Shown: positions 3,195 to 51,821 of the stretch, one piece after another
Position numbering within the stretch: the first letter of the stretch is position 1
Layout of the letters: each line of letters starts with the position of its first letter
Source of the DNA: Acidimicrobiia bacterium
Lineage (GTDB): Bacteria; Actinomycetota; Acidimicrobiia; Spongiisociales; UBA11373
DNA length: 64,000 nucleotides
Direction: 5' to 3'
Assembly: GCA_046714175.1 (NCBI GenBank)
Contig: JBKKBI010000084.1
Span: 26,284 to 90,283, forward strand
Translations under genes and position numbers: made by a program
The notes under the pieces: model-generated
The model's input: only the letters and a program-made list of their open reading frames with translations
Database searches by the model: none
Told to the model about the DNA's origin: nothing

Positions 3195-3243
3195 GGCGGC
3201 AGAATAACAACACTGCTGTAATTTGCTGCCGATCTGGCGGAGG

Positions 3244-3296
3244 ACGGAGACCGGAAGCCGGAGACCGGAAACCGGAAGCCGGAGACCGGAGACCGC
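3244..3296. repeat. Phased heptanucleotide tandem array of (A/G)CCGGA(G/A) units, ~7.5 copies. It lies immediately 3' of the stop of the minus-strand thioredoxin-like gene and upstream of DUF3499.
   Basis: Read directly: acggaga ccggaag ccggaga ccggaaa ccggaag ccggaga ccggaga ccg. It is flanked at 3195-3240 by an AT-rich stretch (aataacaacactgctgtaatttg) bracketed by GGCAG...CTGCC. Confidence 0.85.
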
Positions 3297-3313
3297 CGCT
3301 GCCCGCTGGCAGC

Positions 3314-3682
3314 TCAGAGGCGCGTCAGCAGGCGGTTGAGGGCGCGGCGGGTGAGCCTGCCGGCGATGCGTCCCACTTCGTTGCCGGATGAGTCACGCGC
3401 TACCAGCAGCGGCACCCCGCGCACGCCCGTGGCCTGAAACCGGACCGGCTCGCGGTCGAACGCCACCTCGACGAAGTGCGCTCCGGACGCTTGTAGCGCC
3501 GCGCGCACCTGACCGCACCGTTCGCAACCAGAGTCCGAGAACAGGACCAAACCGACCGGGAGTCCTGACAGCTCGAGGGGGCCGGCTGCAGTGCGGCGCC
3601 GCTCGGCGCCGCGCGCCCATGCGGCTACCAGCAATGCCAACGCCGCCGCCCCTACCGCGAGCCAGATGCGGGGCTCACTCAT
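3314..3682 (-). CDS. Membrane-anchored thioredoxin/glutaredoxin-like protein
   Basis: An internal ATG (MSEPRIWLAVGAAALALLVAAWA) gives a signal anchor followed by a ...FSDSGCERCGQV... CxxC motif. The start overlaps the upstream stop (ATGAGTGA). Confidence 0.6.
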   Translation of the reverse strand: MSEPRIWLAVGAAALALLVAAWARGAERRRTAAGPLELSGLPVGLVLFSDSGCERCGQVRAALQASGAHFVEVAFDREPVRFQATGVRGVPLLVARDSSGNEVGRIAGRLTRRALNRLLTRL

Positions 3683-5039
3683 CGTCGGGGAGCGCCACCC
3701 CTGAAGAAATACCGATGCCGGATGGTCCCTGAATCGTCCAACCCGCCGAGAACGGGGCAGGTGCGGTGACCAGGTACCCGAGCGCATCCGCCTCGGTGAC
3801 CGGGAGCAGAAGCAGTCGCCCCGGGTCGATGGTGTGTCGGGAGTTGAACACCGCAGACTCGGTCAAGACCCCAACGGTGACGGAAATCGGTTCGTCGGTG
3901 GTGTTCAGCAGCCACAGGGTTCCGACGTCCTCGCCCCGGGTGCGCAGCCCGGGCAGGAGCCAGGCACGGGCCGCGGTGGGGATCCCGGCGGTCACGCCGG
4001 TGCCGGCGGCCCCGATCCCGGTGACTGCCACGGCCACCGGGGCGGTGGCGGAGACCCGCGCCGCGAGCACCTCCGGGTCCATGTCGCCGAGGGGCACCCG
4101 CAGCGGCGACTGCGCCGGAACCACGAAGCTGAACGCCGCGGGCATGGAGGTTTCCTGACCGTAAAGGTCGATGGTCACCTCCACGTCGGAGAGGCTGGGA
4201 TTGGCGATGACGATCGCGGCGTCGATGCCTGCGGCCTGCGCAATGGGGAGTTCCCAGGTGGCCGAGAGCCCGGTGCCGCTCCACCATGCTTCGTCGGTGC
4301 CGACCCGGAAGGTCATCACCGGCACCACCAGCCCTTCCTCCACCCGCACCGACAGCACCAGGCTCTGCCGCTGGCGCAGCAGCTCCTCGAAAGGAATGTC
4401 ACGCCACGAGCGGGGGTTGACCGACACCGAGCGTAGGTTCCCCAGTGCCTCGACCCCGATCTCGGAGAATCCGGACACCGTCACCTTGGCAACTTCGGGG
4501 AAAGGGTTGAAGAGCCGAAGGCTGAGCAACTCGTCGGTGTTGGTCGAACCGCCCACGAGGAACCACTCCTCCGGCCCCTGGGACACGCATTGATCTGTGG
4601 CGATCACATCTCCCGTGACCGTGACCGCGGTCGCCGAGGGTCCGCCATCGAACTCGACGAAGAACGGCGAGTCCCCGCGCTGGGCGATTTCGGAGAGGAT
4701 CACCCCCGATGCTCCCGGACCCAGGGTGGCGGTGGCCGCGGTGTCGGGTGGCTCTCCGGGAGTCGCCACCGGGAAGGTGAACTCGGCGGCCGCGGGCGAG
4801 ACCGTTGCCACCGCGAGGAAGGAATCGCGTTCCGCATTCGCCTGCGCCCAGGCGCAATACCAAATGCTCGCCCCGACCGGTGATTCGATACCGGGCCGGT
4901 CGATGACGATCCCGGCCAGAGGCTCGGGCACGGGATCGGGGGCGGGAAGCAGGCCGGCACCGATCGCGGCGACTGCCAGCACGGCGATGGCGAGATGGCG
5001 CCTCACGAACGCGACCTCCTCGGGCGTGCCACCAGGCAC
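3675..5039 (-). CDS. DUF5719 family protein (secreted/membrane-anchored), conserved partner of the GT2-membrane glycosyltransferase
   Basis: A 454-aa protein with an N-terminal anchor, sitting downstream of and overlapping the large GT2 fusion gene, as in the Rv3256c neighbourhood. The exact start is uncertain; alternative GTG codons lie within 30 nt. Confidence 0.65.
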   Translation of the reverse strand: MPGGTPEEVAFVRRHLAIAVLAVAAIGAGLLPAPDPVPEPLAGIVIDRPGIESPVGASIWYCAWAQANAERDSFLAVATVSPAAAEFTFPVATPGEPPDTAATATLGPGASGVILSEIAQRGDSPFFVEFDGGPSATAVTVTGDVIATDQCVSQGPEEWFLVGGSTNTDELLSLRLFNPFPEVAKVTVSGFSEIGVEALGNLRSVSVNPRSWRDIPFEELLRQRQSLVLSVRVEEGLVVPVMTFRVGTDEAWWSGTGLSATWELPIAQAAGIDAAIVIANPSLSDVEVTIDLYGQETSMPAAFSFVVPAQSPLRVPLGDMDPEVLAARVSATAPVAVAVTGIGAAGTGVTAGIPTAARAWLLPGLRTRGEDVGTLWLLNTTDEPISVTVGVLTESAVFNSRHTIDPGRLLLLPVTEADALGYLVTAPAPFSAGWTIQGPSGIGISSGVALPDDE

Positions 5040-7803: not shown

Positions 7804-8724
7804 ATGACGAAGGTGACGGTCCTCGCCGGCGGGGTGGGAGGCGCTCGCGGGGCCCGCGGCTTCGATACCGTCCTCGGCCCGAACGCGCTGACCGTGGTCG
7901 TAAATGTCGGGGACGACGACCGCATCCACGGCGTGCATGTTTCCGCAGATGTGGACACGGTCCTGTACACCCTGGCCGATCGCGAGGGTCCGCAGGGATG
8001 GGGACTCGCCGGAGACACCTTTCATGTCATGGAGCAGCTTGCCGCCGCCGGTGAGGACACCACCTTCCGACTCGGCGACATCGACCTCGCGCTATGCATG
8101 GAGCGCACCCGGGCCCTGGATTCCGGGGAACCACTCTCCGCGATCGTGGCTCGCATCGCCACCGTCCTCGGAATCAGCCGTAGGGTGCTCCCGGTGACCG
8201 ATGACGCCTTGCGCACCCGGATCGAGACCGCCACCGGGGAGTGGCTCGACTTTCAGGAGTACTTCGTGATCCGCGGACACCGCGACCGGGTCGCCGCGGT
8301 CGAATACACCGGCGCGGCACTCACCATTCCCGCCCCCGGGGTGCTCGAGTCGATCGCCGCAGCCGACCTGATCGTGATCGCTCCGTCCAATCCGCCGCTT
8401 TCGGTATGGCCGATCCTCGCCGTGCCCGGAGTGCGGGGTGCGGTGGCGGCGGCTCCCCGGGTGTTGGCCATCAGCCCTCTTTTCGCCGGGGTGGCGCTCA
8501 AGGGTCCGGCGCACACCGTCATGGCTTCGCTCGGGCTCCCCGAAGGGAACGCCGGCGTGCTGGCCGCCTACCGAGGCCTCATCACCGACCTGGTGATCGA
8601 CAATGGCGACCGTGCCGATGCCGCTCTGGGCGGCGACGTGTCGGTGCACGTCACCGACACCCGGATCCATCGCCGCCACGAGTCCGCCCGGCTGGCGGAT
8701 TTCATCCTCGAGTTGGCGGCATGA
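7804..8724 (+). CDS. cofD: 2-phospho-L-lactate transferase CofD/FbiA (coenzyme F420 biosynthesis)
   Basis: MTKVTVLAGGVGGARGARG... is the CofD/LPPG:Fo transferase signature. Its stop overlaps the cofE start (ATGA). Confidence 0.85.
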   Translation: MTKVTVLAGGVGGARGARGFDTVLGPNALTVVVNVGDDDRIHGVHVSADVDTVLYTLADREGPQGWGLAGDTFHVMEQLAAAGEDTTFRLGDIDLALCMERTRALDSGEPLSAIVARIATVLGISRRVLPVTDDALRTRIETATGEWLDFQEYFVIRGHRDRVAAVEYTGAALTIPAPGVLESIAAADLIVIAPSNPPLSVWPILAVPGVRGAVAAAPRVLAISPLFAGVALKGPAHTVMASLGLPEGNAGVLAAYRGLITDLVIDNGDRADAALGGDVSVHVTDTRIHRRHESARLADFILELAA

Positions 8725-9434
8725 GCACCGCCGTCACGATCTTCCCCTTGCCGGGGATTCCCGAGATCGCCGTCGGCGATGACCTGCCGGCATTGCTGCT
8801 GGCGGCGATGCAGCGGGCCGGATGCTCCCCGACCCCCGGCGATGTGCTGGTCGTGACCCACAAGGTGGTCTCCAAAGCTGAGGGGGCAGTCGTAACCCTC
8901 GAGGGGGAGGACGAGGAACTCGCCTACCGGAACCTGGTGTTGAGCGAAGCGAGGGACGTGATCCGGCGCCGCGGTGACCTCGTGATCGCCCGCACCAAGC
9001 ACGGGTTCATTTGCGCCAACGCCGGTATCGATCGTTCCAACGCCGCCCCGGGGACTGCGGTCCTGCTCCCCCACGATCCCGATCGCTCGGCGCATGGGAT
9101 TCGCCTGGCGATCCGCGCCGCCACCGGCGTGGATCTCGCCGTGATCATTTCCGATACCTTCGGCCGCCCCTGGCGCCGGGGACTGACCGATGTCGCCATC
9201 GGCGTGTCGGGGATGCTCCCGATTCACGATCTGCGTGGCACGGTCGACGCCACCGGGCGAGAGTTGCACGTGACCGAAGTCGCGGTGGCCGACGAGATCG
9301 CCGCCGCCGCCGACCTGGTGATGGGAAAGGCTGCGGCGATCCCGGCGGCATTGGTGCGCGGAGTGGTGGTGCCAGCCGGTGAGGGGCGGGCAGCGGACCT
9401 GGTGCGGCCGGACGCGGAAGACTTGTTCAGGTAG
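8721..9434 (+). CDS. cofE: Coenzyme F420-0:L-glutamate ligase CofE (FbiB N-terminal-type, no nitroreductase domain)
   Basis: The ATG at 8721 overlaps the cofD stop. The product (237 aa) carries CofE family motifs (HKVVSKAEG, ICANAGID). The listed ORF from 8241 is an upstream in-frame extension that runs across cofD. Confidence 0.8.
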   Translation: MSTAVTIFPLPGIPEIAVGDDLPALLLAAMQRAGCSPTPGDVLVVTHKVVSKAEGAVVTLEGEDEELAYRNLVLSEARDVIRRRGDLVIARTKHGFICANAGIDRSNAAPGTAVLLPHDPDRSAHGIRLAIRAATGVDLAVIISDTFGRPWRRGLTDVAIGVSGMLPIHDLRGTVDATGRELHVTEVAVADEIAAAADLVMGKAAAIPAALVRGVVVPAGEGRAADLVRPDAEDLFR

Positions 9435-9517
9435 GGGCGAGGGGCGAGGGGCGAGGGGATGACAGATGGCAGATGGCAGATGGCAGATGGCGAGGGGCGA
9501 GAGGCTAGGGGCCCCGG
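9434..9517. repeat. Phased heptanucleotide tandem array, 12 units: GGGGCGA x3, GGGGATG, ACAGATG, GCAGATG x3, GCGAGGG, GCGAGAG, GCTAGGG. It begins on the last base of the cofE stop TAG.
   Basis: Read directly. All units share one 7-nt phase. The same unit types recur at 18498-18532. Confidence 0.9.
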
Positions 9518-15184: not shown

Positions 15185-16735
15185 ATGAGCACCGAGGAGC
15201 AAATCGAACGCTTGCGCCGACTCCGCGAGGAGCACGAGCACGCCGGCAGCCAGCGGGCGGTCGACAAGCAGCACGAGGCGGGGAAGATGACCGCCCGCGA
15301 ACGGATCGACACCTTGCTCGACAAGGGTTCGTTCGTCGAGATGGACATGTTCGTGCGCCACCGCGCCCGAGGGTTCGGCATCGAAGATCGCCGCCCGCCC
15401 GGCGACGCGGTCATCACCGGGTGGGGCACCGTGGACGGCCGCCCGGTCTTTGTGTTTGCTGAGGACTTCACGGTATTCGGGGGATCGCTCGGGGAGGCGG
15501 TGAGCGAGAAGGTTTGCAAGGTCATGGACCTGGCGATGAAGACCGGGGCGCCACTGGTCGGGCTCAAGGACTCCGGCGGAGCGCGCATTCAGGAGGGTGT
15601 GTTCGCCCTTGACGGCTACGGGCGCATCTTCCACCGCAACGTCATGGCCTCGGGAGTGATCCCGCAGATCTCGGTGATCATGGGTCCCTGCGCCGGCGGT
15701 GCGGTCTACTCCCCGGCAATCACCGACTTCGTCTACCAGGTCGAGGGGACCTCGCACCTCTTCATCACCGGCCCGGACGTGATCAAGGCAGTCACCGGCG
15801 AGGACGTGACCTTCGACACCCTGGGTGGAGCCGGACCCCACAGCACGATCTCTGGTGTGACCCATTTCGTCGCCCCCGACGGCCGACAAGCGCTGGAGGA
15901 GGTGCGCTATCTCCTCTCGTTCTTGCCGCAAAACAACATGGAAGCGCCGCCTTTCTTCACCCCCACCGATCGGCCCGATCGCATGGAGGAGGGCCTGACC
16001 ACCATCGTGCCCGACTCCCCCAACCAGCCCTACGACATGGCGGAACTGATCGAGTTCGTGGTCGACGACGGCGAGTTCTATCAGGTGCACCAGCACTTCG
16101 CCCCCAATCTTGCCGTGGGCTTTGGGCGGCTCGATGGCTACACCGTCGGCATCGTCGCCAACAACCCGGCGGCGCTGGCGGGAACCCTCGACATCGATGC
16201 GTCGGTGAAGGGTGCCCGCTTCGTCCGTTTCTGTGACGCCTTCAACATCCCGATCGTGTCGTTCGTCGACGTCCCCGGATTCCTTCCGGGAGTCGATCAG
16301 GAACACGGCGGCATCATCCGCCACGGCGCCAAGCTGCTGTACGCCTATTGCGAGGCGACCGTGCCCCGGGTCACAGTCATCACCCGCAAGGCATACGGCG
16401 GTGCGTACGTCGTCATGAACTCGCGGAGCGTCGGGGCGGACATCGCCTTCGCCTGGCCGACGGCCGAGATCGCGGTCATGGGTGCGCAAGGGGCGGTGAA
16501 CATCATCCACCGCCGCGAGATCACCGACGCCCCCGATCCAGATGCCACTCGCTCCAAGCTCATCGACGACTATGAGCGGGCCTTCTCCAATCCCTACGTG
16601 GCCGCAGAGCGCGGGCTCATCGACGAGGTCATCGAACCGCGCGAGACCCGGCAAAGGTTGATCCAAACCCTGGATGTGCTGCGGACGAAGCGGGTGTCGC
16701 TTCCTCCCAAGAAGCACGGAAACATCCCTCTCTAG
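15185..16735 (+). CDS. accD5: Acyl-CoA carboxylase carboxyltransferase beta subunit (propionyl-CoA carboxylase beta, AccD5/PccB-like)
   Basis: A 516-aa carboxyltransferase with high similarity, from memory, to PccB/AccD5 (MTARERIDTLLD..., GGAYVVM...). It is followed 10 nt later by the biotin carboxylase gene. Confidence 0.9.
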   Translation: MSTEEQIERLRRLREEHEHAGSQRAVDKQHEAGKMTARERIDTLLDKGSFVEMDMFVRHRARGFGIEDRRPPGDAVITGWGTVDGRPVFVFAEDFTVFGGSLGEAVSEKVCKVMDLAMKTGAPLVGLKDSGGARIQEGVFALDGYGRIFHRNVMASGVIPQISVIMGPCAGGAVYSPAITDFVYQVEGTSHLFITGPDVIKAVTGEDVTFDTLGGAGPHSTISGVTHFVAPDGRQALEEVRYLLSFLPQNNMEAPPFFTPTDRPDRMEEGLTTIVPDSPNQPYDMAELIEFVVDDGEFYQVHQHFAPNLAVGFGRLDGYTVGIVANNPAALAGTLDIDASVKGARFVRFCDAFNIPIVSFVDVPGFLPGVDQEHGGIIRHGAKLLYAYCEATVPRVTVITRKAYGGAYVVMNSRSVGADIAFAWPTAEIAVMGAQGAVNIIHRREITDAPDPDATRSKLIDDYERAFSNPYVAAERGLIDEVIEPRETRQRLIQTLDVLRTKRVSLPPKKHGNIPL

Positions 16736-18497: not shown

Positions 18498-18532
18498 GCA
18501 GATAGGGGCGAGGGGCGAGGGGCGAGGGGGTC
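18498..18532. repeat. Phased heptanucleotide array GCAGATA, GGGGCGA x3, GGGGGTC, starting directly after the accA3 stop TAG and reaching the stop of the convergent DMT gene
   Basis: Read directly. It has the same unit types as the 9434-9517 array. Confidence 0.85.
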
Positions 18533-22415: not shown

Positions 22416-24881
22416 ATGGATATCTCCATCCACGAGGTGGAACGCCTCGAGCAACAAGGCCACCGCCTCACCGCGGCGACCACTCTCGCCGCCATCGTCG
22501 TGGTGGCGGCTACCTGGTTCGCCCTGGTGGGGTTCCTAGGAGCCAACAGCGCCCACGGAACTCTCGAAGACTGGCGCGAGCAGTGGATACCTGATGTGGG
22601 TTCCATGGTGCTCGACCTCCCCGACCTCGGCCGGTTGTCCTCCGTATACACCGCTGATGGTGTCCTGCTCGGCCAACTCACTGAGCGCAACAGTCAGCCG
22701 ACGGTCTTCGACGAGATTCCCAACCTCGTGATTGGTGCGGTGCTCTCGGCAGAGGACGACGACTTCATGGAGCACAGCGGCATCGACTTCCAGGCCATCG
22801 CCCGGGCGCTGCTCGAGGACCTCAGCGGGGGGCCGAAACAGGGCGGATCGACCATCACCCAGCAGGTGGTGAAGCTCAACTTCGTCGGCACCGAACCGAC
22901 CCTGCAGCGCAAGGTCGCCGAGGCCACCATCGCCATCGAGCTGGAACGCCGGTTCACAAAAGAGCAGATCCTGGAGTACTACCTGAACTCCGTGTACTTC
23001 GGCTCCAATGCCTACGGCATCACCGCAGCGGCGCAGGAGTACTTCGGCAAGGCCCTCGATCAGCTCACGATCGCCGAGGCCGCCGCCCTCACCGTGCCGA
23101 TCCGCAACCCGTCGCTGTACAACTTGCGCAACGACAGCGAGATCCCGAGGCGAGCCCGCGATGCGGTCATCGACAACATGGTTCAGGAGGGATACATCAC
23201 CGCCTCCGAGGGCCGAACGGCCAAGGCGCAGCCGATCGTCACCGTGGTGCACGAGGAGTCCATCGACCCGGCGCCACAGGTGCTGATCGCGGCCCGCGAC
23301 GGGGTGCTCAACGACGCGCGCTACGGGCTCGGAGCGACCTTCCTGCAACGCAAGCGCGCCGTCTTCGGATGTCCCGCGGATGACGCCGAGTGCACCGGCG
23401 GGGGTGGCCTGCGCATCTTCACCACCGTCGACTGGCGGCTCCAGGAAGAGGCGCGGCGCATCCTGCAGGAGTGGTTCCCGCCCGGCACCGGTCTCCCCAC
23501 CGGGGCCATCGCCATGGTGGACAATCGCACCGGGGCGACGGTGGTGATGGCATCAGGTCTGGACTTCGGTACGGACCTCGAAGCCGGCCAGCGCCAGTAC
23601 GACTTGGCGACCAAGGGCCGCCGCAACCCCGGGTCGGCATTCAAGCCCTTTGGAGCGATCGCCGCCCTCGAGCAGGGCATCCCGCTCGGCTCGTACTGGG
23701 ATGATTCGTCCCCGCAGACCCTGGATTACGGGGGGATCGAGCCGTGGGAATGTGCCAATGCCGGGACCAACTCCCCCGGGATCCGCACGCTGGAGGAGGC
23801 GCTGTACCGCTCCATCAACACGGTCTTCTGCCAGGTGTCGATCGCGGTTGGACCGGAGCACATCGTCGACGTCGCCCACCGGATGGGGATTCGGTCGCCC
23901 CTCGGAGCGGTGCCTGCGATCGTCCTCGGGGCGCAGGCGGTCAGTCCACTGGAGATGGCGGCCGCCTTCTCCACCATCGCCAATCAGGGACTGCGGGTCG
24001 ACAATTACCTGATCGAGCGGATCGAGGATGGAGACGGCAACGTCATCTATCAGCACGAAGTCGGGGCCACCCAGGTGCTGGAGCCTGCACTGAGTGCCGC
24101 GGTGCTCAACACCCTGGAGAAGGCGATCACCCTTGGCACCGGCGGCAACGCCGACATCGGGCGGCCGCAGTTCGGCAAGACAGGAACTCACGAGTCGTAT
24201 CGGGACGCCTGGTTCGTCGGCGGAATCCCGCAGTTCACGACGGCAGTGTGGGTGGGATTCCCCGACGCCCAGACCGAGATGCGCAATGTCACCGTGAAGC
24301 CGAACCGGGACGACCGGGAGACGATCCCCCGCATGTTCGGCTCGAGCGCCCCGGCTCCCATCTGGAGAGAGTTCATGCTGATCGTCGTCGCCGGCCTCGC
24401 CGTCGAGGACTTTCTCCCCGACCCTTCCGGGATCGAGGTCTACTACACGACGCCGCGGGTGGAGATGCCAGACGTGATCGGCATGACCCGCGACGACGCC
24501 GAAGACGCGGTGCGCCGCGCCGGACTCCAGGTCGAGGTCGAGACGGTGAACTCGGAGGAGCCTGCAGGTCGGGTAGTGGGCTCCGACCCCGGACCGGGAG
24601 AGCGAATCCGGCAGGGAACCGTGGCCATCATCGAAATCTCCAACGGGCTCTCGCCGACCGTTTCGGTTCCGAACCTCATCGGCACCAGCCAGGCGTCGGC
24701 GACCCAGACCCTGACTCAGTTGCGCAACAGCAGCAACGTCGACTTCGACTGGGTCTTCGAAGACGTCTCTACCGGGGTCCCCTCCAACGATGGCCTGGTC
24801 CAAGCGATGGTCCCGGGACCAGGAACGACCATCGACAAGGACGACACGATCGTGATCACGGTGTGGAGATACAGCCCGTAG
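22416..24881 (+). CDS. Class A penicillin-binding protein (transglycosylase + transpeptidase) with two C-terminal PASTA domains
   Basis: TM anchor, GT51 motifs ([20 protein letters not shown]), transpeptidase SxxK/KTGT (GSAFKPF, KTGT), and two PASTA repeats at the C-terminus. Confidence 0.9.
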
Positions 24882-24923
24882 GCAGTTACCAGTTACCGGT
24901 TGCCAGTTAGGCATCCGGCATCC
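24882..24923. repeat. Phased heptanucleotide array GCAGTTA, CCAGTTA, CCGGTTG, CCAGTTA, GGCATCC x2, starting directly after the PBP stop TAG
   Basis: Read directly. GGCATCC is a circular permutation of the ATCCGGC unit at 50775-50823. Confidence 0.8.
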
Positions 24924-25002
24924 CTCTCCTTGCAGGCCAACTTTTCGCGTTCCGGGTGTACCTACTTGATGTCTCCTCTTGCTATATGGTATCTAGCGGC
25001 CT

Positions 25003-25431
25003 ATGACCGCTACGGTGCCCGGGAGTCTCCGTCGAGATGAACGTCCTCCCATCAAGATGGATGCCGCGCCAGCCCCGGGCACCGTGGCGGCCTACCGCCC
25101 CACGGTCGTGCCGCGCCCGTGGGTGCGGGTCGAGTTCCACCCCACTCCCCCGGTCGGCCACCACCCCACCGAGGCCGCGGTGCGTCGCTTCTGGACCGCA
25201 CTCGTCGGCCCCGGCGCGGTCGCCGACCTCCTGCGCCTGATTGCGGCCGCCGGTTCGGGGCGGCGGCTCCGGGAACCGCTGCACCTCGCAGTGCTCACCG
25301 CCGAGGGACTGGCCCACCCGGCCGGCGACGTGGTGGTCGTGCCCAGGCTGGTTCCGTACCTCGATGCCACCCGAATCGCCCGGTTGCGGCCGGGACTGCG
25401 CGCCGAGTACCGGCTGCTGATCGACGACTGA
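25003..25431 (+). CDS. Hypothetical protein (142 aa)
   Basis: Strong GC3 codon bias and a location upstream of the Sir2 gene. No family recognised. The antisense Arg-rich ORF is rejected. Confidence 0.45.
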   Translation: MTATVPGSLRRDERPPIKMDAAPAPGTVAAYRPTVVPRPWVRVEFHPTPPVGHHPTEAAVRRFWTALVGPGAVADLLRLIAAAGSGRRLREPLHLAVLTAEGLAHPAGDVVVVPRLVPYLDATRIARLRPGLRAEYRLLIDD

Positions 25432-26240: not shown

Positions 26241-28400
26241 ATGCCGATGCCCGGGGGCATGACCATCCCATCCCCCGCACGGGCAAGGGCCCGGCGGATT
26301 CTCCCGGCCATCGTGGCCTTGGCCATCGCCCTGGCCACCTTTCCGGTGCCCGCGGCCGGAGCCAGCACCAACTTCACCTTTTCCGGGGGTGGTTACGGAC
26401 ATTCCGTCGGTCTGAGCCAGTTCGGCGCCTACGGGATGGCGCGAGAGGGCTACTCGTGGGCCCAGATCATGTCGCACTATTTCACCGGAACCACTCCCGG
26501 CGCGGTTGACGCCGCCACCGCCGCCCGACCGTTGTGGGTCAACCTCCAGGTGGAACAGGCCGCGGTGACGTTCGTGGTCCGGGCCACCGGGACCACTGCG
26601 GGCGCCCCCGTCACCATCACGTCGGCTGGTGGAACCCTCGTGGCCTCGAGCGGACAGACGATCAGGATCACGCGCAGCGGCAACACCTGCACCGCCACCG
26701 CCCCCGCCGGCACGACCACCGGGCCGTGCACGATCGATCTGGGATGGGACGGGAACAGCGGCGACCCGACCACAGCCCTCGTGATCGATGGCTGCTATCA
26801 GACGAACTGGAATCTCACCACGGGCTCGCGCCAGCAACCCTGCACGTATGCGCGGGGATCGATCCACCTTCGGCCCGACAACAACACCGAGACCATGGCC
26901 GTTTCCCTCGAGATCGCCATGGAGGACTACGTCCTCGGCATCTCCGAGATGCCCTACTTCTGGGGGGACCAGGGCGGAGCCGCCGCCCTCGCCGCCCAAG
27001 CGGTCGCGGCCCGCTCTTATGCCTATGCCCGGCTCCTGGCGCGGGGCACCCCCGAGTCGCGCCCGTGGTGTTGGTGCCAGGTGTACGACACCCCCGTCGA
27101 CCAGAACTACGTCGGCTGGGGCCACGGCACCCAGACCTGGATCGATGCTGTCCGGGCAACCGCCGGACAGGTCATGTACCACCCCGAAACCACTCGCAGC
27201 GGAGTCCAGGTTCCGATCCCGACCTTCTACTCGTCGAGCACCTTCGGGCGCACCGAGAACTCCCAGGACGCCTTTACCGCCACCGTCGCCTATCTGCGCT
27301 CTGTCGACGACCACTGGGCAGGCGCTAACGGAGTGGGCAACGGCAACTACCGATGGAGCCGCACCTTTTCGTCCGATCAACTGGCCGCCACCCTTCCCGG
27401 GCTGAGCACCGTCACGGGGGCAACGATCACCCGGTGCTCGGTCTCCGGTGCGGCGTTGGAGGTCACCTTCTCCGGAAGCGGTGGTCCGCGCGCCTTTCAC
27501 GTTCGCCAGCTGCGCAGCCTGCTCAGCCTGCGCTCCCAGCAGATCTACGCCATCAATGGAGTCGCACCCTGTACCGCCGCCGCAGCCACGACCACGACCA
27601 CGTCGACAACCACCACGACGCTCCCGGCAACCACGACAACCACCAACCCTGGTGACTCCACCACGACCTCGACGCTACCGACCACCACCACCAGCCCTGG
27701 CGAAACGACCACCACGACGTTCGCGTCCACCACCTCCACGACCCTCCCGTCCCCGACCACGACGACGTTGGCCGCCACTACCACTACCACTGCTCCCACC
27801 ACCAACACGACCACCACCACGACCACCACCGTGCCACCGTCCACCACGACGACGATCGGAGCGGGGTCCGGACCTTCCTGTGTGGTGGCGATCCCGCCGA
27901 TCGACGCGCTCGCCGGCACGGGCACCAGTCTGCGCACCGGAAGCCAGGGGCCGGCGGTGGCGCAGCTTCAGGTGCTTCTCACCATCCTGGGCCACTACCA
28001 GGGCACTGCCGACGGCGTGTACGGACGATTGACCACCGCGGCAGTGCGGTCGTTCCAGGACTCGCGCGGCCTTTTCGTGGACGGCGTGGTGGGAAGCCGC
28101 ACCCGGAGCGAGTTGGTGGCCTTGCATGCGGCCGCCGAACGAGGACGCATCCTCAGCGCCGACCCCGGGCTCCTCCGCCGCGGCGCCTACAGCGAGGCCG
28201 TGGGGGCCCTGCAGTACCTCCTGGCACGACTCGGGTTCCAGCCCGGCCCGATCGACGGAGCATTTGGGAGCCGGACCGACACCGCAGTGCTCGCTTTCCA
28301 ACGCTCCAAGGCACTCACCGTGGACGGGATCGTCGGCGATGAGAGCAAACGCGCTCTGGCGGCAGCGCTGGGTCTGCAGGCCTTGATCTCATGTCGGTGA
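26241..28400 (+). CDS. SpoIID/LytB-domain protein with Thr-rich low-complexity linker and two C-terminal peptidoglycan-binding (PG_binding_1) domains
   Basis: Signal peptide, the SpoIID signature GGGYGHSVGLSQFGAYGMA, a ~95-aa poly-Thr/Pro linker, then two LxxGxxGxxVxxLQxxL repeats typical of PG_binding_1. Confidence 0.8.
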   Translation: MPMPGGMTIPSPARARARRILPAIVALAIALATFPVPAAGASTNFTFSGGGYGHSVGLSQFGAYGMAREGYSWAQIMSHYFTGTTPGAVDAATAARPLWVNLQVEQAAVTFVVRATGTTAGAPVTITSAGGTLVASSGQTIRITRSGNTCTATAPAGTTTGPCTIDLGWDGNSGDPTTALVIDGCYQTNWNLTTGSRQQPCTYARGSIHLRPDNNTETMAVSLEIAMEDYVLGISEMPYFWGDQGGAAALAAQAVAARSYAYARLLARGTPESRPWCWCQVYDTPVDQNYVGWGHGTQTWIDAVRATAGQVMYHPETTRSGVQVPIPTFYSSSTFGRTENSQDAFTATVAYLRSVDDHWAGANGVGNGNYRWSRTFSSDQLAATLPGLSTVTGATITRCSVSGAALEVTFSGSGGPRAFHVRQLRSLLSLRSQQIYAINGVAPCTAAAATTTTTSTTTTTLPATTTTTNPGDSTTTSTLPTTTTSPGETTTTTFASTTSTTLPSPTTTTLAATTTTTAPTTNTTTTTTTTVPPSTTTTIGAGSGPSCVVAIPPIDALAGTGTSLRTGSQGPAVAQLQVLLTILGHYQGTADGVYGRLTTAAVRSFQDSRGLFVDGVVGSRTRSELVALHAAAERGRILSADPGLLRRGAYSEAVGALQYLLARLGFQPGPIDGAFGSRTDTAVLAFQRSKALTVDGIVGDESKRALAAALGLQALISCR
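27588..27855 (+). repeat. In-frame ACC/ACG-rich simple-sequence region encoding the Thr/Pro-rich linker of the SpoIID protein
   Basis: Read directly: accacgaccaccacg... with period 3, encoding TTTTTSTTTTTLPATTTTTNPGDSTTTSTLPTTTT... Confidence 0.8.
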
Positions 28401-39731: not shown

Positions 39732-41222
39732 TCACGCCAGCTCCTGCTCCCAGTCCCACGTCTCCAGATTCTGTTTGATCCTGCTCAGGAACTTCACCGC
39801 CGTCGATCCATCGAAGGCCCGATGGTCCCAAGACAGGCCGAGGTACCCGACATGGTGGATGGCAATCGCGTCGTTGCCGTCACGGTCGGTCACCACGATC
39901 GGCCTCTTGACCACGGTATCCGTGGACAGGATTGCCACATTCGGCACGTTGATGATCGGAGCGGACATGAACGACCCGAAGGGTCCCGGGTTGGTGATCG
40001 TGAATGTGGACCCGGCGAGGTCGTCGGGCTCCATCTTCCCGGAGCGGGCCTTCTCGGCGAGACGGCGCACTTCGCGGGCGATGCCGCGCATCCTCAGACC
40101 GTCGGCGCCGCGCATCGTCATCACCAAGAGCCCTTCTTCCTCGAGGTCGACTCCGTAGCCGAGGTTGACCGTTCCATGGAGTATGCGCGCCTTGTTCACC
40201 AGGTCGAGGCTCGAGTTCACCACCGGAAACATGCCGAGCGCGTCGACGACCGCACGGCTGACAAATGGGAGGTAGGTAAGCGAGAAACCCTCCCGCTCCT
40301 TGAACGCGTCGCGGTGACGGCGGCGCACGCGCTCCACCGGCTCGAAGTCGACCTCGACCGACGTCCACACGTGGGCGGCGGTCTGCTTGGCTCGGATCAT
40401 GTTGTCAGCGATCCGAATGCGCAGCCGCGACAGATCCTCGACGCGATCACCTCCCCCGGTGTGCATCGTCGCCGCGGTCTGGGGCGCCGGTGCCACCGCG
40501 GGGGGCGACGCCACGGTCGGCTGGGACGGGGTGAACATGGCGTGCTCAGCCGGCTTGTCGACGATCAAATCCGAGATACCGCGACCCAATACGGTGCGAG
40601 GGGGTTCGCCCCCGACTGCCTCCAGAGGTCCCGGGGCGGAGGCGATGAACGCTTCCAGGTCACGCCGGGTGATGCGACCGTCGGTCCCGGTGCCAGCCAC
40701 CCGCGCCAGATCCACGCCGTGCTCGATGGCGAGACGGCGCACCACCGGCGACAGCATCCCGACTTCCGCCCCGGCCGTGGCAGGCACGCCGGTGGGTACC
40801 ACTGTTGCCGGCGGGGGGCTTACGGCCTGCAGTACCGCCTGGGGCGGCTCGGCTGGCTGCGGCTCGGCCGGCTGCGGCTCGGCTGGCTGCGGAACCGTCG
40901 CCTGTGGGGCGGCCGCGGGAGCAGCGGGGGGGACCGGGGATGCAGCCACCGCGGGAACAGGCGCCGCCGCTCCGCCGGCCTCACCAGGCTGTCCGATGAC
41001 GACCAATGGGGTGCCGACAGCGACGGTCGCCCCCTCAGGAACCAAGATCTCAAGAATGGTCCCCGCCACCGGCGACGGCACCTCGGTGTCGACCTTGTCG
41101 GTCGAGATCTCGAGAAGGACCTCGTCTTCGCGAATGGTGTCTCCCGGCTGCTTCGACCACTTGAGGATCGTGCCTTCCGTGACCGTCTCGCCGAGCTGAG
41201 GCATGGTGACCGTAAGGGACAT
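39732..41222 (-). CDS. Dihydrolipoamide acyltransferase E2 component of a 2-oxoacid dehydrogenase complex
   Basis: Lipoyl domain (EISTDKVD), a Pro/Ala/Glu-rich linker with a QPAEP x3 repeat, the E3-binding domain, and the catalytic domain with DHR motif (SWDHRAFDG). Confidence 0.9.
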   Translation of the reverse strand: MSLTVTMPQLGETVTEGTILKWSKQPGDTIREDEVLLEISTDKVDTEVPSPVAGTILEILVPEGATVAVGTPLVVIGQPGEAGGAAAPVPAVAASPVPPAAPAAAPQATVPQPAEPQPAEPQPAEPPQAVLQAVSPPPATVVPTGVPATAGAEVGMLSPVVRRLAIEHGVDLARVAGTGTDGRITRRDLEAFIASAPGPLEAVGGEPPRTVLGRGISDLIVDKPAEHAMFTPSQPTVASPPAVAPAPQTAATMHTGGGDRVEDLSRLRIRIADNMIRAKQTAAHVWTSVEVDFEPVERVRRRHRDAFKEREGFSLTYLPFVSRAVVDALGMFPVVNSSLDLVNKARILHGTVNLGYGVDLEEEGLLVMTMRGADGLRMRGIAREVRRLAEKARSGKMEPDDLAGSTFTITNPGPFGSFMSAPIINVPNVAILSTDTVVKRPIVVTDRDGNDAIAIHHVGYLGLSWDHRAFDGSTAVKFLSRIKQNLETWDWEQELA

Positions 41223-44642: not shown

Positions 44643-44743
44643 CAGCCCTCCAGTCGGTGCCGCCAGAGCCTAGAGCCTCGCCGGTTGCGGAACCAGGGAC
44701 CATTCGTCGGACTGCCGCCGGCCGCGGGTACCCTCGCCGGGCC

Positions 44744-49747: not shown

Positions 49748-50683
49748 ATGCAATGGGCACTGATGACGGAACCGCACACCGGCATGAGCTACGACACCCT
49801 CCTCGCGATGGCGCAGTTCGCCGAACGGTCGGGGCTTGATGCCTTCGCTCGGTCCGATCACTTCTTCGCCGACCGCATCGACCGTCCCAATGCGACCGAC
49901 GCCTTCGCGACGCTCGCCGGGCTGGCGCGGGACACGAACCGCGTCGAACTGGTGGTGCTGGTGAGCCCCATCACATTCCGTCACCCCGGTGTGATTGCCA
50001 AGTCCGCGGCGACGATCGATGAGATGTCGGCCGGCCGGTTTGCCCTCGGCGTAGGCACCGGATGGATGGAGGCCGAGCACGTAAAGTTCGGTCTCCCCTT
50101 CCCGGCCCTGGGAGAGCGCTTCGCCCGCTTGGAGGAGTCATTCGCCTACCTGCACCACGCACTGGGCCGCGCCTCCGGTCCTTACGCCGGGGACTACTAC
50201 GCCCTCGAGAACTCCGACGTGTATCCCCGACGGCCCGGAGTCCGTCTGATCGTCGGCGGGACCGGGGAGCGGCGCACTCCCCGCCTCGCCGGGACGTACG
50301 GGGACGAGTACAACTTCACCCTTCGCCCGGAAGCCGACCCGAAAGTGCGCATTGGCCGGGTGCGGGCGGCCGCGGAACGCGCCGGACGCGATCCCGGGTC
50401 GATCACTCTCTCGGTGATGACCCAGGTCGTGACCGGGGAGACCCCGCCCGAGTTCGCCCGCAATTTGGCCCGCGTGGCGGCCGCCGATCCCTGGGGTTCC
50501 GATCCCACCACCATCGAAAAGCACCATCGCGGCCGCGGCCTCCCCATCGGCACCGGGCCCGAGGTTCGGGAGCGCATCGCCCAGATCGCCGCCCTGGGCG
50601 TCTCCCGGATCTACGTCCAGCACTTCGGTCCCTATGAGACGGACTTGCTCGAGGAGACCTTCGGAGTGTTGCGCGGCGAGTGA
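49748..50683 (+). CDS. LLM class (luciferase-like) F420-dependent oxidoreductase
   Basis: A TIM-barrel LLM family protein (FARSDHFF, LGVGTGW). Consistent with the cofD/cofE genes in the window. Confidence 0.75.
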   Translation: MQWALMTEPHTGMSYDTLLAMAQFAERSGLDAFARSDHFFADRIDRPNATDAFATLAGLARDTNRVELVVLVSPITFRHPGVIAKSAATIDEMSAGRFALGVGTGWMEAEHVKFGLPFPALGERFARLEESFAYLHHALGRASGPYAGDYYALENSDVYPRRPGVRLIVGGTGERRTPRLAGTYGDEYNFTLRPEADPKVRIGRVRAAAERAGRDPGSITLSVMTQVVTGETPPEFARNLARVAAADPWGSDPTTIEKHHRGRGLPIGTGPEVRERIAQIAALGVSRIYVQHFGPYETDLLEETFGVLRGE

Positions 50684-50823
50684 GATAACAGATAACAGAT
50701 AACAGATAACAGATAACAGATAACAGATAACAGACAGCAGGCAGCAGGCAGCAGACAGCAGACAGCAGACCAATCGATCGAGTCCGGCATCCGATATCCG
50801 GCATCCGGCATCCGATATCCGGT
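50684..50823. repeat. Phased heptanucleotide tandem array, 20 units: GATAACA x6, GACAGCA, GGCAGCA x2, GACAGCA x2, GACCAAT, CGATCGA, GTCCGGC, ATCCGAT, ATCCGGC x2, ATCCGAT, ATCCGGT, ATCCGGC. It begins directly after the TGA of the LLM gene.
   Basis: Read directly. It runs 140 nt in a single 7-nt phase and is the largest of five such loci. Confidence 0.95.
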
Positions 50824-50869
50824 ATCCGGCACTTGGGTACCACTCCGGAGCCTCTTATCCTTCCCTCCC

Positions 50870-51625
50870 GTGCCCGCAACCCCCCTGCTCGTCATCGACG
50901 ACCTCCACGCCGCCGCTGCTGGGGTCCCGATCCTGCGTGGGGTCGATCTCACGATCGAACCCGGGGAAACCCACGCCCTGATGGGTCCGAACGGCTCGGG
51001 CAAGTCCACCCTGGGCAATGTCCTGATGGGACACCCCGGGTATCAGGTCATGTCGGGGCGGATCCTGTTCAAGGGGGAAGATGTCACCACCTGGACCCCG
51101 GATGCCCGGGGGCGCGCCGGCATGTTCCTTGCCTTCCAGTACCCCGAAGAGATCCCCGGAGTGACCGTGGTGAACTTTCTCCGCACCGCGCTGTCGAATC
51201 GTACGGGCACGGAGTACACCGTCCTCGAGCTCCGCCTCAAGGTGGCGGACACCATGAAGACGCTCGGCATTGACGCCGGGTTTGCCGACCGCTACTTGAA
51301 CGAAGGCTTCTCCGGGGGCGAGCGCAAGCGGAACGAGGTACTGCAAATGGCGGTACTCGAACCCGAGCTGGCGATCATGGACGAGACCGACTCCGGCCTG
51401 GACGTGGATGCACTCAGGATCGTCGCCGAGGGGGTCACCCGACTGCAGTCGCCGACCCGCGGTTTCCTCGTCATCACTCACTATCAGCGGCTCCTCGAGT
51501 ACATCACTCCCGACCGCGTGCACGTGTTTGTCGCCGGACGAATCGTCGAGTCGGGGGGTGAGGAGTTGGCCCGCCGCATCGAGCTCGAGGGCTACGACAC
51601 CTTCCGCATCGGAACCGGGTCGTGA
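50870..51625 (+). CDS. sufC: Fe-S cluster assembly ATPase SufC (copy 1)
   Basis: Walker A GPNGSGKST, the ABC signature LNEGFSGGERKR, and the SufC-type C-terminus. The start codon is GTG. Confidence 0.85.
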   Translation: MPATPLLVIDDLHAAAAGVPILRGVDLTIEPGETHALMGPNGSGKSTLGNVLMGHPGYQVMSGRILFKGEDVTTWTPDARGRAGMFLAFQYPEEIPGVTVVNFLRTALSNRTGTEYTVLELRLKVADTMKTLGIDAGFADRYLNEGFSGGERKRNEVLQMAVLEPELAIMDETDSGLDVDALRIVAEGVTRLQSPTRGFLVITHYQRLLEYITPDRVHVFVAGRIVESGGEELARRIELEGYDTFRIGTGS

Positions 51626-51821
51626 CAAGCACCGCTCCCACCTACCCGCAAGGGGATTTCCGGTTGCCGGTTTCCAGTTGCCGGGTCTTGGCAGTGGGCG
51701 CACCTCGGCGCGGCTCTCGCCCATCTCTCGTCGGCCATCGCCACGCGTCCGGCGAGTTCTGCATTGCGCATTGTGAATGGCGCCCGGTCACTGCCATTGG
51801 ACTGTCGCGCCAGGTGGCAGC

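Follow-up and report, generated by a model that had tools for sequence, protein, structure and literature searches.

The 64-kb window (the whole stretch of DNA that was analysed) carries on its plus strand, at 22416–24881, an 821-aa open reading frame (ORF) for a class A penicillin-binding protein (PBP) with Transgly, Transpeptidase and two PASTA domains, whose closest homologues come from uncultured Acidimicrobiia. Beginning 1 base past its TAG stop codon (24879–24881), six heptamers follow in a single register (24882–24923, plus strand). They form a proximal block of four units, GCAGTTA CCAGTTA CCGGTTG CCAGTTA (24882–24909), and a distal block of two, GGCATCC GGCATCC (24910–24923), the latter being a CCGG+CAT unit. 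After 14 further nucleotides begins the conserved TTTTCGCG of a probable promoter/leader region, and the next start codon lies 79 nt behind the end of the array. This array and its counterparts elsewhere in the window are heptanucleotide microsatellites of the short tandemly repeated repetitive (STRR) or long simple sequence repeat (long SSR) class, a known class that is found here in an uncultured Acidimicrobiia lineage.

The initial annotation had read the distal block as the unit of a second array, located upstream of sufC, in a rotated register. This is indeed the case: the window contains two exact copies of the 14-mer GGCATCCGGCATCC, at 24910–24923 and at 50800–50813. Shuffled sequences give 0.10 expected matches when up to one mismatch is allowed, and from composition we estimate that a second exact copy would turn up about 0.002 times in the 64 kb. 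The second array had been placed at 50775–50823, about 8 nt too far to the left; it exists, and its true extent is 50783–50831. On its own, GGCATCC ×2 is a mere two-copy block below the long-SSR criterion, and such two-copy heptamer blocks arise by chance at about 1 per 10 kb, array-free relatives included. The block is significant because it is contiguous with another array and identical to the unit at 50783–50831.

Period-7 arrays in the intergenic DNA of the window

Using Tandem Repeats Finder together with a periodicity scan of our own, we found period-7 arrays at six loci of the window. At a score of at least 10 we counted seven period-7 runs versus 0.1 expected from dinucleotide-preserving shuffles. 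Periods 4, 5, 8, 10 and 11 gave no run at this score in the window, and the only other periods in excess were multiples of three, all in coding sequence. About 92% of the window is coding and about 7.5% non-coding, and all six array loci are intergenic, five of them between co-directional genes and one in a convergent gap. Four arrays start at the upstream stop codon or a few bases from it (offsets of −2, −1, +1 and +6), and those at 3238 and 51657 lie 18 and 31 nt away. Tandem 7-nt units, above-chance frequency and non-coding location, three of the features by which long SSR and STRR-like repeats are recognised, are present here.

The region upstream of sufC is composite. AGATAAC ×7.4 (50683–50734, plus strand) overlaps the TGA of a luciferase-like monooxygenase gene and is unstructured as RNA. 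It is continued in register by 5.7 variant AGACAGC/AGGCAGC units (50735–50770, plus strand), with transitions as the sole differences. Then follow, at 50783–50831 on the same strand, the seven copies TCCGGCA TCCGATA TCCGGCA TCCGGCA TCCGATA TCCGGTA TCCGGCA with a higher-order period of 21 nt, which stop 1 nt short of a putative sufC −35 box. The right-hand limit of the array is set by the plus-strand segment 50833–50872, where TTGGGT (50833–50838), a spacer of 17 nt, TATCCT (50856–50861), 8 nt and a GTG at 50870 are probably a −35/−10 pair driving a leaderless sufC mRNA. In an alignment of four genomes (the window and the relatives L147, L148 and L149) TATCCT is invariant, 8 nt before an invariant GTG, and CTTGGG stands 17–18 nt upstream in three of the four. 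No Shine-Dalgarno sequence is present at this putative leaderless start, and a simple promoter consensus scan did not report the putative promoter. In the following sufC–sufS gap we found TTCCGGT TGCCGGT TTCCAGT TGCCGG (51657–51684, plus strand), which belongs to the CCGG/CCAG-core family.

The remaining three loci lie further upstream in the window. At 3238–3295 the plus-strand reading is CGGAGAC/CGGAAGC, and on the minus strand these are eight TCCGGTC/TCCGGCT/TCCGGTT units that begin 18 nt past the stop of a minus-strand ORF. They form a ladder of CCGG stems with a fold z score of −2.8, which makes this the only window array with an unusual fold. A small GC hairpin (GCUGCC-AGCG-GGCAGC, 3296–3316, minus strand) stands directly after the stop of that ORF (3314–3787), just before the TCCGGYN array; in L151 a GC hairpin likewise lies between the PBP stop and the arrays.

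The array at 9433–9512 (plus strand; AGGGGCG, GATGGCA, AGGGGCG) overlaps the stop codon of an F420-ligase gene. Its 32-nt GATGGCA block (about 9458–9489) is nested out of register within the AGGGGCG array, and excising the block restores the AGGGGCG register with 38 of 41 period-7 matches. One type of array thus seems to have been inserted into the other. At 18504–18529 (plus strand) AGGGGCG ×3.7, with four GGGG tracts, fills a convergent gap of 33 nt; in L001 this gap measures 2 nt and has no array. The same unit occurs antisense, with four C-tracts, in L149 (3866–3897), 23 nt before the sufS start.

Two repeat regions of other periods lie in coding sequence. One is a Pro/Thr-rich region at 27586–27845 (ORF 26241–28400) with periods of 12, 24 and 48 nt; near 16400–16600 of L001 and L002 the homologues of this ORF have a length difference of 63 nt (679 versus 700 aa), one assembly being derived from run SRR1024100. 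The other is a 15-nt tandem repeat, GCGGCTCGGCTGGCT ×3.3, at 40844–40892 within the minus-strand ORF 39732–41222.

Turnover of arrays at orthologous gaps

For the PBP region we compared syntenic DNA of L001/L002/L003, L143, L144, L150 and L151 (PBP identity 84–85%), of L145, L146, L005 and L004 (79–80%), of L006 (70%) and of L007–L010 (44–68%). For the sufC region the relatives were L147, L148 and L149, with a monooxygenase identity of 70–72%. L148 and L151 are both from one metagenome-assembled genome (GCA_964440905.1).

Where the window has CCAGTTA ×4 and GGCATCC ×2 behind the PBP gene, L001 has CCAGTCA ×6.3, reading TAG GAAGTCA CCAGTCA CCAGTCT CCAGACA CCAGTCA CCAGTCA CCAGACC. L143 combines CCAGTCA ×2 with CAGACAA ×3, reading TGA GGAAGTCA CCAGTCA CCAGACA ACAGACA ACAGACA. 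Judged from their sequences, the proximal units of the window (CCAGTTA) and of L001 and L143 (CCAGTCA) are homologous. The distal GGCATCC block has a counterpart in L151 only, where another CCGG-core unit takes the corresponding position: here a GC-rich hairpin and CGACGCC ×3 are followed by TCTCCGG ×8, which reaches the conserved TTTTCGCG. L145, L146 and L006 have no array, and 6–12 nt lead from the stop codon to TTTCGCG. The comparison of gaps shows the array behind the PBP gene to be an expandable filler between the stop codon and the conserved promoter/leader of the next gene.

The conserved stretch itself (24938–25005) comprises about 70 nt (TTTTCGCG ... CTACTTGATG ... TATCTA ... ATG) 5′ of a 142-aa ORF at 25003 and is also found in L005, L006, L007, L145, L146 and L151. 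It is probably a promoter plus a regulator site. The 142-aa ORF has no Pfam match, and in L001 and L143 an extra amidohydrolase gene sits between the PBP gene and the homologue of this ORF.

Both the monooxygenase–sufC and the sufC–sufS gap contain arrays in all four genomes, mostly with unlike units. L148 has a degenerate AGCNNNC ×7 array where the window has its AGCAGRC block, then a spacer with CGATCG, and then TCCGGCA TCCGACC TCCGGCC TCCGGCA TCCGGCA TCCGGCC TCCGG followed by CACTTGGGTA. This TCCGGCA/TCCGGCC array is homologous to the window array at 50783, on the strength of the unit and the right flank CACTTGGGTA that they have in common. In the same gap L147 carries AGCTCTC/AGCTCTG ×5, which runs into CTTGGGA, and L149 carries AGCGGTC ×2, CGACGGG ×3 and GGTAACC ×3. 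In the sufC–sufS gap each of the four genomes uses its own units. The orthologous arrays, behind the PBP gene as well as in the sufC gaps, differ in copy number.

Arrays are frequent in the closer relatives, with eight array-containing gaps in 21 kb of L147, and we found no heptamer arrays in L007, L009 and L010 (about 67 kb together). A separate case is AGAGCCTAGAGCCT, two exact heptamers in the gap between a lipoamide-dehydrogenase-like gene and a hydrolase gene (window 44665–44678, L147 3425–3438, L148 3667–3680). It may be a binding site because, unlike the variable arrays, it is fixed in three genomes at a syntenic place.

Gain and loss of whole units is seen directly in two near-identical metagenome contigs, L029 and L098, whose sole differences are two 7-nt indels within arrays; their organism is unrelated to that of the window, and the unit is the same. 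These indels, the higher-order periods of 14 and 21 nt in the 3238 and 50783 arrays, the in-register variants and the nested GATGGCA block point to slippage, to expansion of mutated units and to at least occasional insertion of one array into another. Deamination-type transitions were considered as the source of array variation. This is true of the arrays behind the PBP gene and upstream of sufC, but overall 62 transitions versus 67 transversions amount to a mild excess only, and we rejected the idea.

In metagenomes, more than 120 contigs contain (GGCATCC)≥3, at contig GC contents from 34 to 74%. Eight contigs (L014, L018, L024, L068, L103, L106, L117 and L128) end inside (GGCATCC)n. This suggests that the arrays break assemblies, either through length variation or because one unit occurs at several loci. 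GGCATCC is not a globally special unit, since the same-composition control (GGCTACC)3 was commoner in viral contigs (10 versus 2).

Unit vocabulary, polarity and orientation

We compared 49 blocks from 28 gaps of nine genomes, pairing blocks from different gaps and allowing up to one mismatch, any rotation and either strand. Within one genome 23 of 135 block pairs matched, versus 3.5 expected from shuffled units and 3.8 from GC-matched 7-mers of the same genomes. Between different genomes the count was 65 of 1008, versus 26.5 and 28.2, respectively. A CCGG/CCAG/CTGG core is present in 19 of the 49 blocks, versus 5.5 in shuffled units and about 9 expected from the genome's own tetranucleotide frequencies. 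Individual genomes have dominant units, such as AGCTGWC at six of eight gaps in L147. These data support a vocabulary of units that is common to the gaps and strongest within one genome. The genome-wide observed/expected ratio of CCGG is 1.01, which gives no indication of a CCGG restriction system.

The initial annotation had linked at least four of the window loci into one element family. They are indeed one class of object with units related beyond chance, and four of them have a unit of CCGG/CCAG plus 3 nt: 3238 (minus strand, TCCGGTC...), 24896–24923, 50783 and 51657. A discrete element is not what they form, since they lack conserved flanks and termini, and AGGGGCG (9433 and 18504) is a separate unit family. 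Among arrays of the same unit we found no conserved flanks, termini, terminal repeats or target duplications.

Three properties that might be sought in the units themselves were tried and rejected. About 42% of the units contain a 4-nt palindrome versus about 36% expected (hand count), so that palindrome-based units promoting hairpins are unconvincing. A stop codon in every unit, serving as a three-frame safety net, is found in AGATAAC, AGCTGAC and GGTAACC; most units have none. Rho loading sites do not fit either: the excess of C over G is inconsistent, and AGATAAC and AGACAGC are without YC dinucleotides.

A second proposal of the annotation was a block architecture of AT-rich units followed by GC-rich ones, whose orientation relative to the upstream gene was to be checked. 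Both the PBP and the sufC-upstream locus do open with AT-rich units (CAGTTAC 43% GC, AGATAAC 29% GC, in a window of 67% GC). As a rule the polarity does not hold. Among the composite arrays of the window and its relatives, three independent cases follow it (24882; 50683 with its L148 orthologue; L149 3830) and four run against it (9433, GC-AT-GC; L001 8143–8268 on the gene strand, GC-AT-mid; L143 4162 and L149 2950, both GC to AT). At 120 metagenome loci with (GGCATCC)≥3, a block of a different unit precedes the GGCATCC block in 25 cases and follows it in 23, and unrelated neighbour blocks have a mean GC of 0.57 (5′) versus 0.60 (3′), showing no bias of side or GC.

Orientation relative to genes was considered as well. 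For GGCATCC in metagenome contigs, crude gene calls gave 34 sense and 21 antisense arrays behind stop codons, and 24 and 26, respectively, ahead of start codons, and we rejected orientation as a clear rule for this unit. Six independent cases of CCAGTCN do follow a pattern, being sense behind a stop codon and antisense ahead of a start codon.

Origin of the arrays and relation to known repeats

We consider slippage with variant-unit expansion and inter-array copying in unconstrained stop-to-promoter spacers to be the most likely mechanism, with a probability of roughly 0.6. The arrays sit in the only intergenic DNA that is dispensable, which extends from a stop codon to the next promoter or ribosome-binding region, and they abut stop codons because they are confined to this stretch. 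Within it, whole 7-nt units would be gained or lost by slippage, a unit would acquire a point mutation and the variant would then expand into a block, and occasionally a stretch of one array would be copied into or beside another. The limited, CCGG/CCAG-centred vocabulary of each genome would result from such copying or from a tendency to slip that depends on sequence. GGCATCC ×2 would then match the sufC-upstream array because it is a CCGG-core block of this common vocabulary, and not because the two are copies of one structured element. Slippage in this genome, inter-array copying and the absence of a required function are what we infer from the observed locations, turnover and sharing of units.

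Several points weigh against this explanation. Pure slippage from random seeds predicts neither a common vocabulary nor the persistence of TCCGGCA at one site in the window and in L148, where the neighbouring protein is only 71% identical. The unit of 7 nt, rather than 5 or 8, is left without a reason. Copy-number variation is seen in the unrelated contigs L029 and L098 only, and the orientation pattern of CCAGTCN hints at a strand-specific constraint.

There is some chance, although a minor one, that one or several trans-acting factors read the arrays as functional cis-elements, in the form of DNA upstream of promoters or of RNA in 3′ untranslated and intercistronic regions, with a vocabulary that co-evolves with the factor; (TCCGGCA)n would for example serve sufC as an upstream promoter element or insulator. 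In the window and in L148 the TCCGGCA array adjoins the conserved −35 box, the same gaps retain arrays across four genomes, and units are alike more often within than between genomes. AGGGGCG arrays have exactly four G-tracts next to stops on the sense strand, as described in PMC4692102, and for Nostoc a regulatory influence of heptamer repeats has been reported (bioRxiv 10.1101/2022.06.06.494920). However, several factors would be required for the at least three unrelated unit families of one 64-kb window, the units that L147 and L149 have at this sufC promoter are quite different, and the array behind the PBP gene is absent altogether in close relatives. In addition, Rfam covariance models at gathering score gave no match in the whole window, promoter and terminator consensus scans found nothing near the PBP 3′ or the sufC-upstream array, and the metagenome copies of GGCATCC have no clear orientation. 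If the arrays have a function, the TCCGGCA array conserved at the sufC promoter and the AGGGGCG arrays with their four tracts are the best candidates.

Rather doubtful is a combined scenario, in which lineage-specific inter-array copy-and-paste and selection together would keep the CCGG/CCAG vocabulary at fixed stop-to-promoter spacers while the neighbouring proteins have diverged by 15–30%. The arrays would then serve as protein-binding arrays, insulators or hairpin arms, placed sense after stops and antisense before starts, with (TCCGGCA)n at the leaderless sufC −35 box in two genomes as the example.

We regard it as unlikely that the pair of AT-rich and GC-rich blocks derives from decayed inverted arrays, that is from a long hairpin of the REP (repetitive extragenic palindrome) or terminator kind, whose CAGATAA/CAGTTAC arm would be an eroded (G-to-A) reverse complement of the GGCATCC arm. 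Inverted pairs do exist in relatives, at 8211–8314 of L006, with 42-nt arms, 81% complementarity and a fold z of about −6, and at 8174–8236 of L001; both lie in the gap between a methylmalonyl-CoA mutase and an EamA gene, with CCAGTCN sense by the stop and antisense by the following start. An inverted partner accompanies about 10–15% of the GGCATCC loci in metagenomes, 11 times on the 5′ side and 2 times on the 3′ side, and CAGATAC blocks in metagenomes are exactly complementary to GGTATCT units. In the window, AGATAAC and CAGTTAC are complementary to GGCATCC at six of seven positions if G-U pairs are allowed, the sufC-upstream arms fold on the minus strand into a regular helix with six pairs per 7 nt, and a small hairpin, CCGGTTGCC-AGTTA-GGCATCCGG, can be drawn at 24896–24918. 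Against this, 17% of random unit pairs likewise reach six of seven pairs. The helix depends on G-U pairs, forms on the antisense strand only and has an ordinary energy (z = −1.0), and the AGATAAC block is unpaired on the sense strand. The region behind the PBP gene folds no better than shuffles (z = +0.8), and the orthologous arrays of L001 and L143 have no partner arm. Because random pairs do as well in 17% of cases, the helix scores only z = −1.0 and the sense strand is unpaired, we do not claim inverted pairs for the window.

Quite improbable appears an active lineage-specific process, a mobile element or an enzyme adding templated heptamers, that would lay down the arrays in place of ordinary replication errors. 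The arrays are limited to one lineage, since the window, L147, L148 and L149 carry them densely and the roughly 67 kb of L007, L009 and L010 carry none; the dominant units per genome, the out-of-register block nested at 9433 and an excess strictly at 7 nt would fit as well. However, conserved flanks, terminal repeats and target duplications are lacking, a candidate enzyme was not identified, and heptamer arrays with arbitrary units occur in very diverse taxa, where the (GGCTACC)3 control is as common as (GGCATCC)3. Finally, that GGCATCC is a chance 7-nt duplication beside an unrelated array can practically be dismissed: two-copy heptamer blocks are common enough by chance and this one has just two copies, but it lies within the 7.5% non-coding DNA, contiguous with another array, the expectations for its second copy are only 0.002 (exact) and 0.10 (up to one mismatch), and L151 has the CCGG-core TCTCCGG ×8 at the same relative position.

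In this Acidimicrobiia lineage the arrays are dense, and several related genomes with orthologous gaps make birth, turnover and unit sharing traceable, which could help to separate neutral slippage, inter-array copying and selection. The arrays also matter for metagenome assemblies, which they probably break, with many contigs ending within them. As marks of unconstrained intergenic DNA they moreover show the limits of promoters, for instance of the putative leaderless one of sufC.

Heptamer arrays have been known in bacteria since 1990, when the STRR were described; STRR1–3 have the units CCCCAGT, TTGGTCA and CAACAGT. To our knowledge, neither a reason for the 7-nt unit nor any function of bacterial heptamer arrays has been established. 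In a literature search we found no report of heptamer arrays in Acidimicrobiia, no description of a CCGG/CCAG vocabulary common to gaps and genomes and, for long SSRs, no description of arrays retained at orthologous gaps.

Several other repeat classes resemble the arrays in part. Like REPs and BIMEs (bacterial interspersed mosaic elements), they follow stop codons, and some (L006, L001) are inverted pairs with long hairpins. REPs are conserved imperfect palindromes, whereas the window arrays mostly have no partner arm or conserved sequence. Termini or a palindrome common to copies, as in REPs or miniature inverted-repeat transposable elements, are absent: flanks share nothing, and folds are ordinary apart from 3238–3295. 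They also differ from phase-variation SSRs, whose copy number switches expression from within an ORF or from between the −35 and −10 boxes, since they lie outside ORFs, the sufC-upstream array is 5′ of the putative −35 box and the flanking genes are housekeeping genes.

TAACTGA direct repeats are found before start codons in marine Beggiatoaceae, cyanobacteria and Bacteroidetes (MacGregor 2015, PMC4679880) and are likewise short intergenic arrays (2–6 copies) that occur at very many loci. Reverse-complemented, CCAGTTA reads TAACTGG and matches TAACTGA at six of seven positions, and GACTGGN arrays of relatives directly abut start codons (L148 11937; L005 8250), as TAACTGA does. TAACTGA is one dominant unit, set in forward orientation over the ribosome-binding site a few nt upstream of starts, whereas here many units are mostly anchored at stops. 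The array behind the PBP gene has CCAGTTA as its unit, begins 1 nt past a stop codon and ends 79 nt short of the following start, and it is not a member of that family.

Rehm et al. (2015, PMC4692102) described G-rich GGGNATC and GGGGAYT heptamers of Xanthomonas and Nostoc, which form G-quadruplexes and lie between co-directional genes. As here, the same gaps are filled in related species and genomes, with variable length and sequence. CAGTTAC, GGCATCC and AGATAAC are not G-rich and lack the four or more tracts of at least three G with short loops that a G-quadruplex needs. On sequence, the AGGGGCG arrays at 9433 and 18504 do have them: with exactly four G-tracts on the sense strand next to stops they correspond to the four-unit preference and placement in PMC4692102, as does the antisense array of L149, and they are candidates for quadruplex folding.

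The cyanobacterial STRR of Calothrix and Nostoc (cited in PMC4692102) are tandem non-coding heptamers with several unit families per genome, as are the arrays here. They belong to a different phylum and have different units, of which only the CAGT/CCAG core is reminiscent, and the window arrays are shorter, with 2–8 copies. The window arrays are therefore not STRR proper, which are defined by the STRR1–3 units in heterocystous cyanobacteria. The closest likeness is to the long SSRs. According to the summaries of Mrazek 2007 in PMC4679880 and PMC4692102, many bacteria have heptanucleotide repeats as their commonest long SSR, the genomes richest in 5–11-nt repeats include those of Burkholderia, cyanobacteria, Xanthomonas and three Actinobacteria, and the proposed cause is polymerase slippage over a contact of roughly 7 nt. 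As far as those summaries describe them, the long SSRs that Mrazek, Guo & Shah reported in 2007 occur in large, GC-rich, free-living bacteria including Actinobacteria. They vary by whole units, as the arrays of the window may do too, and they share with these arrays the head-to-tail 7-nt units, the intergenic location, the many loci and unit types per genome and the sporadic phylogeny.

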